From a virus (Duplodnaviria; Heunggongvirae; Uroviricota; Caudoviricetes), in the IMG/VR virus record IMGVR_UViG_2526164669_000028: DNA of 33,149 nt; one strand, written 5' to 3'. Position numbers and translations under genes: made by a program. Under the pieces are notes generated by a model. It was not told the DNA's origin, ran no database searches, and worked only from the letters and a program-made list of their open reading frames with translations. Positions 1 through 8,379 of this stretch are shown piece by piece (the stretch's first letter is position 1; every line of letters begins with the position of its first letter).

Positions 1-981
1 TTATAACGTCACTCCGCCTTTTAGTGGATTCAGAGCGACGGCATTTTGCAGATAGTCAGGCGCAAGGTGCGCATAGGCCATCGTCTGCTGAATGCTCGCA
101 TGTCCCAGAATCTGTTGCAGTGCGATTATATTGCCCCCATTCATCATGAAATGGCTTGCGAATGTATGCCGCAGGATGTGGGTTGCCTGATTGGGTGGTA
201 TATCAGGTTTCACTCTGCGTAAAATCCCGCAAAATTTCTCATAATCAACTTTGAATAATTTGGCGCTGGCCTCCTCTTTAACTTTTTTCTCCAGTTCCTC
301 AGAAATCGGCACGGTTCGCTTTTTACCGTTTTTGGTTTTCAGGAAGGTAACCCTGCAATTTGTAATCTGTGCTGGTTTTAGCGTGGCAACTTCCGTCCAT
401 CTTCCTCCAGTGCTCAGACATAAAAGCGCGACAAGTAAGTCATCACCAGCCAAAACATTTAACAGTTTTTCGATTTCTGCTTTTTCCAGGAACGTCATTT
501 CAGGGTTGGCCTCCGCCAGTGGCGGCAGTCCGTGAATTGGGTGTTGCCCGGAAAATTCATCCAATTGAATTAATTTTGTGAACATGCCGGATAATCTGTA
601 CATGTCACGGTTTATCGTTGCGGCACTGATACCATCACGTAGTCGCATGGAACGATAATCCATCAAAGCCCTTTTGCTCATCCTGCTCACTGGTATATCA
701 CCTATGCCGCTGATGGTTTTGAGTAGATGATTAAACTCTTTTGTTCCATGCTCGTGGTTTTGCCCGTGATATTTCCACCAGATGTCCAGCAACTCACTCA
801 AAGTCCGGCGGTCTGCTCGCTGGCCTCCCCATTCTTTCTGACTGGCATTGGCGATTGTGTATCGCTCAAATGCTAGTGCTTCAGCTTTTCTTTCGAATTT
901 CCTGCGGATGCGTTTTCCGTCGCGACCGCGAGGTCTAATGTCCACTTCATAGCGACCATCATCGAGCTTCTTAATTGCCAT
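1..981 (-). CDS. int: Tyrosine integrase (P2 Int-like)
   Basis: ORF 1..1011 translation matches P2 integrase from MAIKKLDDGRYEVDIRP; start placed at the internal Met (981) because GGAGG lies 8 nt upstream, while the 1011 ATG has no RBS. C-terminal HxxR...Y catalytic region present (HILRHTFASH..., LGHASIQQTMAYAHL). Confidence 0.9.
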   Translation of the reverse strand: MAIKKLDDGRYEVDIRPRGRDGKRIRRKFERKAEALAFERYTIANASQKEWGGQRADRRTLSELLDIWWKYHGQNHEHGTKEFNHLLKTISGIGDIPVSRMSKRALMDYRSMRLRDGISAATINRDMYRLSGMFTKLIQLDEFSGQHPIHGLPPLAEANPEMTFLEKAEIEKLLNVLAGDDLLVALLCLSTGGRWTEVATLKPAQITNCRVTFLKTKNGKKRTVPISEELEKKVKEEASAKLFKVDYEKFCGILRRVKPDIPPNQATHILRHTFASHFMMNGGNIIALQQILGHASIQQTMAYAHLAPDYLQNAVALNPLKGGVTL

Positions 982-1050
982 AAGAAAGCCCTCCGGCGCT
1001 GTATTCACCATCTTGGTAGCAAATGGTGAAAATGTAATCTTTATATAGAG

Positions 1051-3237: not shown

Positions 3238-3509
3238 GTATTCGTATTGAAATTGGCGAACGTTATGTCGTTACCGGTGACAGCTTCCAGTTTATTCTCC
3301 ACGAGAAAAAGAGAGCGGAAAGCGGTAAAAACGCCGGTCAGGAATGGCTGGCGGTGGTTGGTTATTACCCGAAATTAAGCCAGCTCGTTTCCGGCCTGAT
3401 GCATCACGATATTCTGACCGGAAGCGCAAAGTCTTTTGCTGATTTAAACGCGCAGGTTGAGCAACTCAGCAAGCGTTGTTCAGAGGCTTTTGGCTCATAT
3501 GGCCGTTAA
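3234..3509 (+). CDS. Hypothetical early protein (P2 orf83-like)
   Basis: 91-aa ORF, ATGA overlap with upstream gene; its 3' end overlaps the A start. Confidence 0.65.
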   Translation: MSIRIEIGERYVVTGDSFQFILHEKKRAESGKNAGQEWLAVVGYYPKLSQLVSGLMHHDILTGSAKSFADLNAQVEQLSKRCSEAFGSYGR

Positions 3510-5787
3510 AGCCTCCGGGCGTTTTGTCCCTCCGTCAGCATTTGCTGCAGGCACCGGTAAGGCGTTTACCGGTGCTTATGCATGGAACGCGCCACGCGAG
3601 GCTGTCGGGCGCGAAAGACCCCTTACACGTGACGAGATGCGTCAGGTGCAAGGTGTTTTATCCACGATTAACCGCCTGCCTTACTTTTTGCGCTCGCTGT
3701 TTACGTCACGCTATGACTACATCCGGCGCAATAAAAGCCCGGTGCACGGGTTTTATTTCCTCACATCCACTTTTCAGCGTCGTTTATGGCCGCGCATTGA
3801 GCGTGTGAATCAGCGCCATGAAATGAACACCGACGCGTCGATGCTGTTTCTGGCTGAGCGTGACCACTATGCGCGCCTGCCGGGAATGAATGACAAGGAG
3901 CTGAAAAAGTTTGCCGCCCGTATCTCATCGCAGCTTTTCATGATGCATGAGGAACTCAGCGATGCCTGGGTGGATGCGCATGGCGAAAAAGAATCGCTGT
4001 TTACGGATGAGGCGCAGGCTCACCTCTATGGTCATGTTGCTGGCGCTGCACGTGCTTTCAATATTTCCCCTCTCTACTGGAAAAAATACCGTAAAGGACA
4101 GATGACCACGAGGCAGGCATATTCTGCCATTGCCCGTCTGTTTAACGATGAGTGGTGGATTAGTCAGCTTAAAGGCCAGCGTATGCGCTGGCATGAGGCG
4201 TTACTGATTGCTGTCGGGGAGGTCAATAAAGACCGTTCTCCTTATGCCAGTAAACATGCCATTCGTGATGTGCGTGCACGCCGCCAGGCAAATCTGGAAT
4301 TTCTTAAATCGTGTGATCTCGAAAACAGGGAAACAGGCGAGCGCATCGACCTTATCAGTAAGGTGATGGGCAGTATTTCTAATCCTGAAATTCGCCGGAT
4401 GGAGCTGATGAACACCATTGCCGGTATTGAGCGTTACGCCGCCGCAGAAGGTGATGTGGGGATGTTTATCACGCTGACCGCGCCGTCAAAGTATCACCCG
4501 ACACGTCAGGTTGGAAAAGGCGAAAGTAAAACCGTCCAGCTAAATCACGGCTGGAACGATGAGGCATTTAATCCAAAGGATGCGCAGCGTTATCTCTGCC
4601 GTATCTGGAGCCTGATGCGCACGGCATTCAAGGATAATGATTTACAGGTCTACGGTTTGCGAGTCGTCGAGCCACACCACGACGGAACGCCGCACTGGCA
4701 TATGATGCTTTTTTGTAATCCACGCCAGCGTAACCAGATTATCGAAATCATGCGTCGCTACGCGCTCAAAGAGGATGGCGACGAAAGAGGAGCTGCGCGA
4801 AACCGTTTTCAGGCAAAACATCTTAATCGGGGCGGTGCTGCGGGGTATATCGCGAAATACATCTCAAAAAATATCGACGGCTATGCACTGGATGGGCAGC
4901 TCGATAACGATACCGGCAGACCGCTGAAAGACACTGCAGCGGCTGTTACCGCATGGGCGTCAACGTGGCGTATCCCGCAATTTAAAACGGTTGGTCTGCC
5001 GACAATGGGGGCTTACCGTGAACTACGCAAATTGCCTCGCGGCGTCAGCATTGCTGATGAGTTTGACGAACGCGTCGAAGCTGCACGCGCCGCCGCAGAC
5101 AGTGGTGATTTTGCGTTGTATATCAGCGCGCAGGGCGGGGCAAATGTCCCACGCGATTGTCAGACTGTCAGGGTCGCCCGTAGTCCGTCGGATGAAGTTA
5201 ACGAGTACGAGGAAGAAGTCGAGAGAGTGGTCGGCATTTACGCGCCGCATCTCGGCGCGCGTCATATTCATATCACCAGAACGACGGACTGGCGCATTGT
5301 TCCGAAAGTGCCGGTCGTTGAGCCTTTGACTTTAAAAAGCGGCATCGCCGCGCCTCGGAGTCCTGTCAATAACTGTGGAAAGCTCACCGGTGGTGATACT
5401 TCGTTACCGGCTCCCACACCTTCTGAGCACGCCGCAGCAGTGCTTAATCTGGTTGATGACGGTGTTATCGGATGGAATGACCCGGAGGTCGTGAGGGCGC
5501 TCAGGGGCGCATTAAAACACGGCCTGAGAACATCAAATCGTCAGCAAAGAAACGGAAGCCCGTTAAAACCGCATGAAATAGCACCATCTGCCAGACTGAC
5601 CCGGTCTGAACGATTGCAAATCACCCGTATCCGCGTTGACCTTGCTCAGAACGGTATCAGACCGCAGCGATGGGAGCTTGAGGCGCTGGCGCGTGGGGCA
5701 ACCGTAAATTATGACGGGAAAAAATTCACGTATATGGTTACTAATGAGTGGTTCGGATTTCAAGATGAAGTGTCATTTTTCATGTAA
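3499..5787 (+). CDS. A: Replication initiation endonuclease gpA (rolling-circle nickase)
   Basis: ORF 3457..5787; start set at MAVKASGRFVPP (3499), matching the recalled P2 A N-terminus; 762 codons versus 761 aa in P2; HxH-type motif (HHDGTPHWHMM) present. Confidence 0.92.
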   Translation: MAVKASGRFVPPSAFAAGTGKAFTGAYAWNAPREAVGRERPLTRDEMRQVQGVLSTINRLPYFLRSLFTSRYDYIRRNKSPVHGFYFLTSTFQRRLWPRIERVNQRHEMNTDASMLFLAERDHYARLPGMNDKELKKFAARISSQLFMMHEELSDAWVDAHGEKESLFTDEAQAHLYGHVAGAARAFNISPLYWKKYRKGQMTTRQAYSAIARLFNDEWWISQLKGQRMRWHEALLIAVGEVNKDRSPYASKHAIRDVRARRQANLEFLKSCDLENRETGERIDLISKVMGSISNPEIRRMELMNTIAGIERYAAAEGDVGMFITLTAPSKYHPTRQVGKGESKTVQLNHGWNDEAFNPKDAQRYLCRIWSLMRTAFKDNDLQVYGLRVVEPHHDGTPHWHMMLFCNPRQRNQIIEIMRRYALKEDGDERGAARNRFQAKHLNRGGAAGYIAKYISKNIDGYALDGQLDNDTGRPLKDTAAAVTAWASTWRIPQFKTVGLPTMGAYRELRKLPRGVSIADEFDERVEAARAAADSGDFALYISAQGGANVPRDCQTVRVARSPSDEVNEYEEEVERVVGIYAPHLGARHIHITRTTDWRIVPKVPVVEPLTLKSGIAAPRSPVNNCGKLTGGDTSLPAPTPSEHAAAVLNLVDDGVIGWNDPEVVRALRGALKHGLRTSNRQQRNGSPLKPHEIAPSARLTRSERLQITRIRVDLAQNGIRPQRWELEALARGATVNYDGKKFTYMVTNEWFGFQDEVSFFM

Positions 5788-6195
5788 AACACTTTAAAAT
5801 TCAATGCAATGAAAGCATATCCATGTCTCATTGATATGCCTTTCAGTTATTATATATTTGTTTTATATGAAAAAATATCATATGCAGGGGGAGCAAATAC
5901 AACGGTTTACTTGTTATGATGCAAACATTGGTTAGTTAGTGAGATATATCGCCATCAATTGGGTATTTTTACCCGTGGAAAGTTAACGCTTTCTAACACT
6001 TACCCCGCGCAACGCCCCTGCCAGCGACAGGAGTCACAGGATCAGGAGGTATGGCGTATGGGTATTCGAACCCTTTGGGCGACCAAGGGTTCGTGGAGCA
6101 GGGGGCTAGTGCTGTTCAATCTCATCCTTATGAGGGCGAACCATAGTGTTGGAGCAGACATACCGTTTGCACACTATGGGCATAAGGAGCAAATC
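5788..6195 (+). ncRNA. Candidate structured non-coding leader (possible retron msr/msd RNA) upstream of the RT cassette
   Basis: About 400-nt AT-rich non-coding gap after A. Hairpins: GCATATC...GATATGC (5817-5840), GAACCCTT...AAGGGTTC (6067-6091), CCATAGTGT...ACACTATGG (6141-6178, 9-bp stem). Boundaries and function are not resolved by eye. Confidence 0.25.
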
Positions 6196-6351
6196 ATGAA
6201 GAATGATAAATTAACCAACGAACAGCAGGCGCAGAACAAGTCAAACCTGAAAAAGTGGGCTGGTTACGCTTGGAAATTAATCAAATGGGGTATTAGACTG
6301 TTTGATTTAGTTACTCGAGCACTGGACTACTTCGAAGGGGGTGATGAGTAA
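6196..6351 (+). CDS. Small hypothetical protein (51 aa), first ORF of the RT cassette
   Basis: ATG preceded by AAGGAG at 7 nt spacing; MKNDKLTNEQQAQNKSNLKKWAGYAWKLIKWGIRLFDLVTRALDYFEGGDE. The annotated 5959..6351 ORF is treated as a spurious 5' extension. Could instead be part of the ncRNA. Confidence 0.4.
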   Translation: MKNDKLTNEQQAQNKSNLKKWAGYAWKLIKWGIRLFDLVTRALDYFEGGDE

Positions 6352-6375
6352 TGCGTCCTCCCTAGTTTCAATAGC

Positions 6376-6696
6376 ATGGAGTTGCCTATGTTACATAAAG
6401 CCCTTCGTTTAATAAGGCAATACCATAAAGAATCAATAGTTGAGTTATCTTCATCTTTAGGTATTCCAAAAGACAAAATAGTATCGCTTGAAAGCGGAGT
6501 TTGGTCACCGTCGATTGAAGTCTTAGAGCGTTACGCCTCCCATTTCGACATACCAGTATCCTCTTTAGTATTCTTTTCGGAATCATTAGGCACGCAAGGC
6601 CGTTTGTCTAAGCGATTGCGTTTAAATTTAGCCGGTAAAGTTCTGGATGTTCTGGAGTGGGTAAGTAATAAAAATGAAAAAACGGAAAAAGCTTAA
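6376..6696 (+). CDS. XRE-family helix-turn-helix protein associated with the retron-type RT
   Basis: 106 aa; HTH signature (...IVELSSSLGIPKDKIVSLESGVWSPSIEVLERYASHF...); overlaps the RT start by 23 nt, suggesting co-translation. The start may be the second ATG at 6388. Confidence 0.7.
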   Translation: MELPMLHKALRLIRQYHKESIVELSSSLGIPKDKIVSLESGVWSPSIEVLERYASHFDIPVSSLVFFSESLGTQGRLSKRLRLNLAGKVLDVLEWVSNKNEKTEKA

Positions 6697-7748: not shown

Positions 7749-8186
7749 CTATGAAGCTGACGTCACAAAATTAACACCAAGAGTCAACAGGTTTGTCACT
7801 GCTCCAGCAATGACACCTGGAGTCCCGTCTTTTACTGCACTGATAATTTTATCTCCCATCGTTTCATTACCGCCAAGTGCTTCGGGTTTTTTGTTGAGCA
7901 CCGCGAGTGCTTTCTCGGTCAGGCGCACATCATGAAAACCAGTCTGATGGTCTGTTCCGTACAGAATATAGCCGTTTTCGCTTAGGAAAGTGAATGTGCC
8001 ATCAACCACACTACGCAACTGATTCAGTGCTTTCATTTCTGGTGAGTTAAGTTGGTCAAAGTAGTCATCAGGTAACGCGGCGTTAAATTTTTTGTAGGTG
8101 ATGACTTGTGGTACAGGAAAGTTATCCCATAGCACCGCAAAGATTTCAGCCGTCTGCTGGTTAAATAATTCGAGGTTTTTGGACAT
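7749..8186 (-). CDS. Hypothetical protein (145 aa) with Gly/Ala-rich hydrophobic C-terminus; cargo gene convergent to the RT cassette
   Basis: Minus ORF with AAGGG RBS 7 nt upstream; C-terminal ...DGTPGVIAGAVTNLLTLGVNFVTSAS suggests a membrane-interacting tail; AT-rich. Confidence 0.6.
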   Translation of the reverse strand: MSKNLELFNQQTAEIFAVLWDNFPVPQVITYKKFNAALPDDYFDQLNSPEMKALNQLRSVVDGTFTFLSENGYILYGTDHQTGFHDVRLTEKALAVLNKKPEALGGNETMGDKIISAVKDGTPGVIAGAVTNLLTLGVNFVTSAS

Positions 8187-8379
8187 GCATAATTCCCTTT
8201 CATCAATTAAAGACCCTTATGCCGACTGGGCAAAGAGACTCACTGTAATGGCCTCAAATAACGACCTGAGTTCCCGCGAAGTGGAAAGCTACACCGAAAA
8301 AATGGTCGAGCAAGCCAGTAAAGATGAGCTTACGGTCGTTATCAAACACCTTTTAAACCACATCAGAATGAACAAATAA
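8185..8379 (+). CDS. Small hypothetical ORF (65 aa)
   Basis: Internal Met of ORF 8098..8379; GAGG about 9 nt upstream; its start overlaps the start codon of the divergent 145-aa gene, so it may not be real. Confidence 0.3.
   Translation: MHNSLSSIKDPYADWAKRLTVMASNNDLSSREVESYTEKMVEQASKDELTVVIKHLLNHIRMNK

Follow-up and report, generated by a model that had tools for sequence, protein, structure and literature searches.

A P2-like prophage of an Escherichia coli host carries a retron cassette directly after its P2-type gene A, and the question raised by this locus is what is encoded by the unannotated, structured interval that separates the two. The window analysed here is the whole stretch of 33,149 nucleotides (nt) of IMG/VR virus record IMGVR_UViG_2526164669_000028, in which the structured RNA and the retron genes sit between gpA and the portal gene (gpQ). 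The gpA-gpQ interval is a hotspot for anti-phage systems in P2-like phages, retrons included (Rousset et al. 2022). An earlier reading of the sequence, here called the original prediction, had placed a structured, AT-rich leader at 5788-6195 and had regarded it as the most likely location of the retron non-coding RNA (ncRNA), should the cassette be a retron. The interval does hold that RNA, as indicated by matches of the adjoining genes to the profiles RT_VI and HTH_VI and by a conserved, covarying RNA. We conclude that the segment from about 5927 to about 6370 is very probably the hybrid RNA (hyRNA) of a type VI retron of the Retron-Vpa2 lineage, residing in the gpA-gpQ hotspot and equipped with a promoter, an msr/msd-like section, a riboregulator arm and an embedded small-protein (SP) gene. 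The genes present, their families, conservation, structure and covariation were computed in this analysis, while use of the promoter, the ends of the RNA, the extent of the cDNA, the trigger and the toxicity were reasoned from Retron-Vpa2.

By its protein profiles the cassette is a type VI retron of the SP-HTH-RT subtype, because its reverse transcriptase (RT) matched PADLOC RT_VI at 4.1e-105, the alignment covering 278 of the 279 positions of the profile (the runner-up, RT_III-A, reached 5e-45), and its helix-turn-helix (HTH) protein matched HTH_VI at 7.7e-31. The RT translation carries NAKAH, VTG (within KLVTGVIV) and YVDD, corresponding to the NAxxH/VTG/YxDD set that Mestre and colleagues reportedly described in 2020 as retron-specific in RTs. 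The class as such follows the Mestre 2020 classification and PADLOC, in which a Cro/C1-type HTH protein directly precedes or overlaps the RT. At E ≤ 1e-30, 350 homologues of the 316-amino-acid (aa) RT were found. The HTH gene adjoins the RT gene and overlaps it by 23 nt at the RT start (6674). A mechanical list of open reading frames (ORFs) puts the HTH start at ATG 6376; we favoured ATG 6388, which has a conserved ribosome binding site (RBS) and corresponds to the ATG chosen by PGAP, the PADLOC match beginning at residue 5 of the longer ORF. The SP ORF of 51 aa is called with exactly these limits by PGAP in E. coli JJ2434 (as a hypothetical protein), and its product matched phrog_15287 at 1.6e-38. 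In relatives with RTs as little as 45% identical, an ORF of 47-55 aa lies at this site before HTH and has the same motifs (xQQ close to the N-terminus, a C-terminal half that is hydrophobic and often a final EGGDE), and the order SP-HTH-RT is kept with fixed spacing from 100% to 45% RT identity. By analogy with Retron-Vpa2, SP is a predicted toxic effector encoded within the structured RNA.

Conservation among relatives with RTs 75-100% identical was low from 5746 to about 5900, rose at a -10-like box and remained at 0.9-0.98 from that box through 6195, except at one stem tip (about 6020-6045). Positions 6046-6140 were 98% conserved, above the sequence coding for SP, and the 23 bases after the SP stop (6349-6371) were 97% conserved. 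Segment 5927-6195 folded with z = -3.6 (none of 200 shuffles as stable) and segment 5927-6375 with z = -5.3 (none of 100). A transcription start at about A5927 is predicted, because the -10 box keeps a constant distance to the first conserved RNA bases; distant relatives show a clear TTGACA -35 box in addition to the -10-like hexamer. From this start the RNA most likely runs to about 6370, through the SP gene, as one continuous transcript. The interval first proposed thus holds the RNA, and its borders move at both ends, with 5788-5905 being a variable spacer and the RNA continuing through SP.

The spacer at 5788-5905, with a GC fraction of about 0.29-0.32, was not alignable even among relatives with RTs 75-86% identical. 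The GC content was 28-32% over about 5700-5950 and 48-61% over the structured 5950-6200, so that the AT-richness claimed for the whole leader applies to the former part only. All three inverted repeats on which the claim of structure had been based are present, and the second and third (6067-6093 and 6141-6179) are conserved with compensatory changes. The first (5812-5825/5829-5842, core GCATATC/GATATGC) is unconserved and lies within the AT-rich spacer, in a segment (5788-5926) that folded with z = -1.56, 16 of 200 shuffles being as good. This hairpin, 5812-5842, is incidental and not part of the RNA element. As a terminator for gene A it was rejected for want of a T-run and of conservation, and a promoter-like site from a consensus scan (5831-5858) was rejected on the ground that its stretch is not conserved.

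Related loci, 129 in number, were gathered by viral and metagenome scans with an RT alignment, together with look-ups of the encoding contigs; a scan of genome contigs with a single RT protein gave only two distant loci. For the closer relatives, a structure was derived with RNAalifold from 18 sequences, in which 96.9% of cells were paired and 28 pairs were changed on both sides, compared with 15.3 ± 2.3 in shuffled alignments (0 of 500) and 5-10 in slid ones. Because three helices, namely the long-range helix X-Y, the closing helix of arm 2 and the anti-Shine-Dalgarno (anti-SD) helix, were invariant within this set, we built a model of the wider family. The covariance model R1, comprising 6063-6230, was searched against 91 non-redundant loci and matched 64, and R2, to which hairpins P1 and P2 belong, matched 58 of the 91; the matches of both models were all on the + strand and just upstream of SP. 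In the wide alignment of 58 distinct sequences, 97.1% of cells were paired (63.5% when shuffled), and cells with double changes numbered 638, against 164 in shuffled and 85-125 in slid alignments. Compensatory changes were present in every helix.

The individual helices of the wide alignment repeat this pattern. Hairpin P4, whose arms form an inverted repeat at 6067-6075/6085-6093 (CGAACCCTT/AAGGGTTCG), had changes on both sides at 9 of 9 pairs and 97.5% of cells paired across the 58 sequences, and hairpin P5 had such changes at all 14 of its pairs. The anti-SD helix (6125-6132/6181-6188), which covers the SP RBS, was double-changed at 8 of 8 pairs, with 97-98% of cells paired. Repeat 2 of the GGGCGA repeats, beside this helix, was conserved in 54 loci and varied together with repeat 1 in the P4 loop. 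The base of the long stem P3 is conserved and covarying (for example, C-G in 8, U-A in 7 and U-G in 3 sequences), and its tip varies in sequence and length, many closer relatives carrying about 20 nt more. The tip (6020-6045) is the only hypervariable part of the RNA; P3 is about 20 nt shorter in the window and its closest E. coli variants than in relatives from Klebsiella, Enterobacter and Serratia.

In the closing helix of arm 2, 7 of 8 pairs had changes on both sides and 99.1% of cells were paired. Its 3' strand occurs as GAACAGCA, GAUCAGCA, GACCAACA, GUCCAACA and GGCCAGCA, each matched by the 5' strand. Across relatives, this 3' strand coincides with the conserved (E/D/N/V/G)-Q-Q codons of SP, and in locus L070, which has V-W-Q codons, the 5' strand is compensated (UUGCCAG/CUGGCAA). 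Since changes at the first residue and the change from QQ to WQ are both met by compensation in the 5' strand, the QQ motif, the most conserved peptide motif of SP, reflects at least partly a constraint from RNA pairing.

Helix X-Y had 98.6% of cells paired in the RNAalifold set, where closer relatives show one-sided changes only; distant relatives have other sequences, such as UCGAGAC/GUUUCGA and AAAUU/AAUUU, as read by eye from the alignment. A test of cognate against non-cognate duplexes did not discriminate for X-Y, nearly all members sharing GGGGG/CCCCC, and the support from distant members consists of the alignment reading and the Vpa2 fold. The third arm in the RNAalifold structure is the remainder of the SP coding sequence.

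This architecture is that of a characterized retron. Retron-Vpa2 of Vibrio parahaemolyticus produces a hyRNA of about 470 nt, which consists of msr-msd and the toxic SP coding sequence, folds into three arms, sequesters the RBS and start codon, and pairs its 3' end back onto the first arm (Zhang et al., bioRxiv 10.1101/2025.10.22.683967). Its multicopy single-stranded DNA (msDNA), 63 nt long or 86 nt in the full-length form, builds up only when triggered and relieves the repression of SP translation, the full-length form being the 63-nt long stem-loop plus 23 nt at the 5' end with an essential stem-loop and a 7-nt repeat; direct copies of this repeat lie in the msd loop and in the riboregulator loop (10.1101/2025.10.22.683967). 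Among our loci, L128 of V. parahaemolyticus has an RT 54% identical to that of the window and a 55-aa SP with K15, I39, F43 and F45. Because these residues were mutated in the Vpa2 study, we took L128 as Retron-Vpa2 or a relative with an identical SP. Its RNA scored 84 bits with R1 and 64 bits with R2, and its minimum-energy fold contains X-Y together with all other elements, in the same architecture as the window RNA.

The window and Vpa2 agree in the order SP-HTH-RT, in an RNA of about 450-470 nt that includes the SP coding sequence, and in a succession of P1, P2, a long msd stem and a hairpin whose loop bears the 7-nt repeat. In both, a copy of the repeat lies beside the sequestered RBS, the 3' end pairs with the segment after the msd, and the fold has three arms. 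They differ in SP (55 aa in Vpa2, 51 aa in the window, with little identity beyond the QQ and GGD(E/T) motifs), in the repeat (GGACGAA in Vpa2, GGGCGA in the window), in the msd tip and in the host element, which for the window is an E. coli P2-like prophage. In L128, the long stem-loop occupies the position of P3, and the stretch between the P3 base and the P4 end measures 84 nt, compared with the reported 86-nt Vpa2 msDNA. By analogy with the Vpa2 msDNA map on L128, the reverse-transcription template in the window would be about 6003-6093, the reverse complement of which folds as DNA into two hairpins (z = -3.6). The hyRNA design was first described in preprints of 2025-2026, and the element in the window is of this already known kind.

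A further member of the group is Retron-Eco12, an E. coli type VI retron that is related to Vpa2, defends against lambda-vir and yields no detectable msDNA at baseline (10.1101/2025.10.22.683967). Every type VI-like match to the window RNA among complete E. coli genomes falls into one family, so that Retron-Eco12 is probably the window system or a close variant.

For the window, the structure and the Vpa2 mechanism combine into the following scheme. The conserved extended -10 promoter would drive a single transcript of three sections: an msr/msd-like section with P1, P2, the variable-tipped P3 and P4; a riboregulator arm, in which the SP RBS is paired with the anti-SD strand and the first SP codons with the 5' end of the RNA (helix P0); and the remainder of the SP reading frame, closed by pairing of 6094-6105 with the bases just after the SP stop. 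As in Vpa2, RT, HTH and hyRNA may form a complex, and reverse transcription of P4 and P3 would be held low in the uninfected state. Phage recombination or anti-RecBCD proteins would then let the cDNA, about 90-95 nt here, accumulate. Its copy of the GGGCGAC loop would pair with GGGCGAA beside the anti-SD helix and free the RBS, whereupon the 51-aa toxin would be made and the infection aborted.

Two long-range contacts are indicated for the 5' end of the RNA. The pairing of P0 is kept in every relative with a differing sequence (UGUUUAUGU/ACAUAAACA, CGAUGUGU/ACACAUCG, UGUUCUAAA/UUUAGAACA and CUAUUGAG/CUCAAUAG). Duplexes from 47 variants, with strands drawn from alignments not fitted to P0, had a mean of -9.5 kcal/mol when cognate and -3.7 kcal/mol when non-cognate, and none of 10,000 permutations was as good. 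Counted by fixed alignment columns, P0 was only 59.5% paired and a slide of +1 scored higher, because the register shifts by 1-2 nt between subfamilies. P0 probably adds to the translational repression of SP, as its 3' strand is within reach of an initiating ribosome. Together, P0 and the arm 2 closure would represent either a pseudoknot or alternative states, that is, a conformational switch.

The second contact involves a single-stranded motif 3' of the P0 strand, in which G5941 and G5943 are nearly invariant. Its UCGCC (5949-5953), 12 nt beyond the P0 strand, is complementary to both GGGCGA repeats, and all 54 loci that allow the comparison keep the 4-bp core CGCC:GGCG complementary. All three sites changed together in two independent lineages, to UCGUC/GACGA/GACGA in L128 and to AUCACU/GGUGAU/GGUGAU in L070. 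When the non-coding part is folded in isolation, UCGCC pairs with 6135-6139, within repeat 2. Because P0 covaries in 47 variants and UCGCC shows this three-way compensation, we tentatively raise the possibility, doubtful as yet, of a pseudoknotted hyRNA in which the leader UCGCC fills the riboregulator loop in the OFF state and helps to block initiation until the msDNA displaces it. The leader UCGCC would then be an RNA copy of the key msDNA motif, and the msDNA, having the longer complementarity, would act by a toehold-like strand exchange, not by invasion of a free loop. In the text, figures apart, of the two preprints on this type (10.1101/2025.10.22.683967 and 10.64898/2026.04.27.721009), neither the P0 helix nor the UCGCC contact was found, and a pseudoknot is not mentioned. 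Within the finding, only the P0 pseudoknot and the UCGCC contact may be new.

Repeats of the a1/a2 type, which had escaped detection by eye, do exist, as 6094-6105/6358-6370 (after the SP stop) and 5928-5937/6209-6218 (inside SP), and they are not at the canonical ends. Like canonical msr-msd RNAs (Ec86/Retron-Eco1), the window RNA lies upstream of the RT gene, has a long msd stem after its msr-like hairpins, and has terminal-repeat-like pairings that flank the template. Its 5' motif UUAGUGAGA presumably resembles UUAGCGAGA of Ec86 around the branching G. Unlike the canonical RNAs, it doubles as an mRNA, and its a1- and a2-like strands pair with segments of, or next to, the embedded coding sequence and not with each other. 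In the Vpa2 lineage, msDNA reportedly turns the toxin on instead of neutralising it. Retron msDNA is a multicopy single-stranded DNA that depends on the RT and is started at the 2'-OH of a branching G beside the a1/a2 duplex. P0 as a canonical priming duplex of this kind was rejected, as the cDNA would start inside SP, contrary to the Vpa2 msDNA map.

Several points weigh against reading the segment as a hyRNA of the Vpa2 kind. Because the wide alignment (A5) was fitted to the model, its percentages of paired cells are inflated, an objection to which the slid and shuffled controls are a partial answer. This RNA has no Rfam model, so no independent curated family confirms it; at the gathering score there were no Rfam matches in the whole window, and at E ≤ 10 there were only chance-level matches in 5700-6450. 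Many closer relatives have a P3 about 20 nt longer than that of the window. Helix P0 crosses the arm 2 closure although both covary, so that any single nested structure is incomplete. P0 is wrongly placed to prime on P4, and when a branching G was sought in the relatives' alignments, no positionally conserved G was found after strand Y. Lastly, Retron-Sen3, also of type VI, is controlled post-translationally with constitutive single-stranded DNA (ssDNA) (10.64898/2026.04.27.721009), and the Vpa2 mechanism cannot be assumed for every member.

This last point leads to the alternative that survives best, in which the RNA anatomy is the same and the control is Sen3-like: ssDNA and SP would be constitutive, HTH would neutralise the SP protein, inhibition of RecBCD would release the toxin, and the structure at the RBS would not be the switch. 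Retron-Sen3 (cl2075), which makes ssDNAs of 112 and 145 nt constitutively and has an SP of 79 aa under post-translational control, provides the precedent, and its ncRNA also hides the SP RBS, in the basal stem (Garcia-Rodriguez et al., bioRxiv 10.64898/2026.04.27.721009). It shares with the window a structured ncRNA within about 280 nt upstream of SP, a long internal stem with a variable centre, a long-range repeat by which the ncRNA pairs with bases immediately 3' of the SP stop, and an SP coding region under RNA structural selection. Mutation of HTH is toxic in Vpa2 too (10.1101/2025.10.22.683967), and the HTH gene of the window is tightly coupled to SP and RT. However, Sen3 belongs to another RT subclade and another SP family, with an N-terminal extension, whereas the 51-aa SP of the window resembles the short 55-aa SP of Vpa2. 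Membership of the Sen3/cl2075 lineage was rejected for this reason, and by its sequence the window retron is of the Retron-Vpa2 lineage, not of cl2075. The RNA features specific to Vpa2, namely the anti-SD helix, both repeats and the X-Y helix, are also in place, and the undetectable baseline msDNA of the Vpa2-related Eco12 argues in the same direction. Given this SP type and the full set of Vpa2-specific RNA features, we consider Sen3-like control unlikely.

Far less probable is the view that the interval is merely a promoter with the ordinary 5' untranslated region (UTR) of a small-gene operon, its hairpins being incidental or transcript-stabilising and no template for reverse transcription being present. 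A promoter does lie within the interval (5912-5920), Rfam families do not match and the hairpin at 5812-5842 is indeed incidental. However, conservation of the non-coding part exceeds that of the coding sequences on either side, about 40 base pairs covary across loci with RTs only 35-55% identical, the RNA always accompanies a retron RT, and the homologous Vpa2 RNA is an experimentally demonstrated template. The original prediction had itself named folding and comparison of homologous loci as a check and a simple promoter or UTR as the outcome that would speak against it; these analyses gave a conserved structure with covariation. That ORF 5959-6351 is a genuine 130-aa protein conserved by coding constraint is highly improbable, for although the frame is open for 130 codons and phrog_5826 (97 aa) matches it by its C-terminal 51 positions only, some annotators having extended the gene upstream, it starts with TTG and has no RBS, indels of 1-25 nt in the 5' part of relatives (for example, at the P3 tip) would shift the frame, substitutions track base-pairing and not codon positions, and PGAP and gene callers choose the 51-aa ORF. 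The earlier view of this ORF as read-through across the structure agrees with its 5' part, where an RBS is lacking and the protein sequence is unconserved, and fails for its last 51 codons (80-130), which are the real SP gene.

To our knowledge, no ncRNA of type VI retrons was recognised before 2025. With the present results, an oddly structured interval that annotation had left blank in a common E. coli prophage becomes a defined element, the central RNA of a type VI retron. The RNA is unmarked by PGAP and Rfam, and precise coordinates (Table 1) and two covariance models are therefore useful for annotation. The family-wide comparison also shows that part of the SP protein sequence, the QQ motif, is constrained by RNA pairing, and it points to P0 and the 5' UCGCC as extra long-range contacts that may be parts of a translational switch.

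Table 1. Positions of the RNA elements, cassette genes and landmark prophage genes in the window.
Feature	Position	Strand	Remarks
AT-rich spacer, gene A to retron promoter	5788-5905	+	Variable; outside the conserved RNA
Extended -10 promoter element, TGTTATGAT	5912-5920	+	Fixed spacing to first conserved RNA bases in all relatives
Helix P0, 5' strand, UUGGUUAGUU	5928-5937	+	Pairs with 6209-6218; inverted repeat
Single-stranded motif UGAGAUA...UCGCC	5941-5953	+	Nearly invariant alignment columns
Hairpin P1 (UGGGUA/UACCCG), msr-like	5960-5975	+	3 of 6 pairs with changes on both sides; RNAalifold
Hairpin P2 (GGAAAGU/GCUUUCU), msr-like	5977-5994	+	RNAalifold, pair counts
Long stem P3, variable tip	6003-6062	+	Candidate msd: template of main msDNA stem-loop
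Hairpin P4, CGAACCCUU/AAGGGUUCG	6067-6093	+	Candidate template of 5' stem-loop of full-length msDNA
Repeat 1, GGGCGAC	6077-6083	+	P4 loop
X, 5' strand of long-range helix, UGGAGCAGGGGG	6094-6105	+	a2-like; pairs with 6358-6370
Arm 2 closing helix, 5' strand, UGCUGUUC	6110-6117	+	Pairs with 6220-6227; inverted repeat
Anti-SD strand, UCCUUAUG	6125-6132	+	Pairs with 6181-6188 (CAUAAGGA); inverted repeat
Repeat 2, GGGCGAA	6134-6140	+	Internal loop beside anti-SD helix, directly 3' of anti-SD strand
Hairpin P5	6141-6179	+	Inverted repeat 6141-6149/6171-6179 (CCATAGTGT/ACACTATGG)
SP gene, 51 aa	6196-6351	+	ATG 6196; RBS AAGGAG 6184-6189; inside the RNA
Helix P0, 3' strand, AAUUAACCAA	6209-6218	+	SP codons 5-8
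Arm 2 closing helix, 3' strand, GAACAGCA	6220-6227	+	E-Q-Q codons of SP
Y, 3' strand of long-range helix, CCUCCCUAGUUUCA	6358-6370	+	a1-like; 7 nt after SP stop; 97% conserved though non-coding
HTH gene, 102 aa	6388-6696	+	From ATG 6388; RBS GGAG 6378-6381; PADLOC HTH_VI 7.7e-31
Retron RT, 316 aa	6674-7624	+	YVDD, NAKAH, VTG motifs; PADLOC RT_VI; Pfam RVT_1
Integrase	1-1011	-	
Replication gene A	3457-5787		Pfam Phage_GPA 5e-123
Large terminase	9935-11737	-	Portal gene just before

Of 5426 complete E. coli genomes, 99 carried the RNA region at a coverage of 80% or more and 100 had some match; all of these matches were chromosomal, and O157:H7 strains were among the genomes that carried them. 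Peduovirus P22H1 and prophages of Klebsiella also carry the RNA, at about 84% identity.

In the prophage around the cassette, portal gene Q is split into two ORFs on the - strand (9108-9935 and 8900-9208), with one extra T near 9122 by comparison with the intact 344-aa gene of E. coli JJ2434. The split gene represents either a frameshifted pseudogene of a defective prophage or a sequencing error. Downstream of the retron, the gpA-gpQ hotspot carries two cargo ORFs, one of 145 aa (7749-8186, - strand, phrog_2266) and one of 64 aa (8185-8379, + strand, phrog_2454), which could form a further defence or counter-defence module; the 145-aa ORF had no match in Pfam, PADLOC or NCBIfam. Relatives of the retron outside P2 prophages adjoin defence genes, with QatB, QueC and TatD (a Qat system) at L123 (3727-5951) and AbiEii at L129 (1-608). 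In the P2-like context of L121 (4017-4850), an HNH protein is encoded downstream of the retron.

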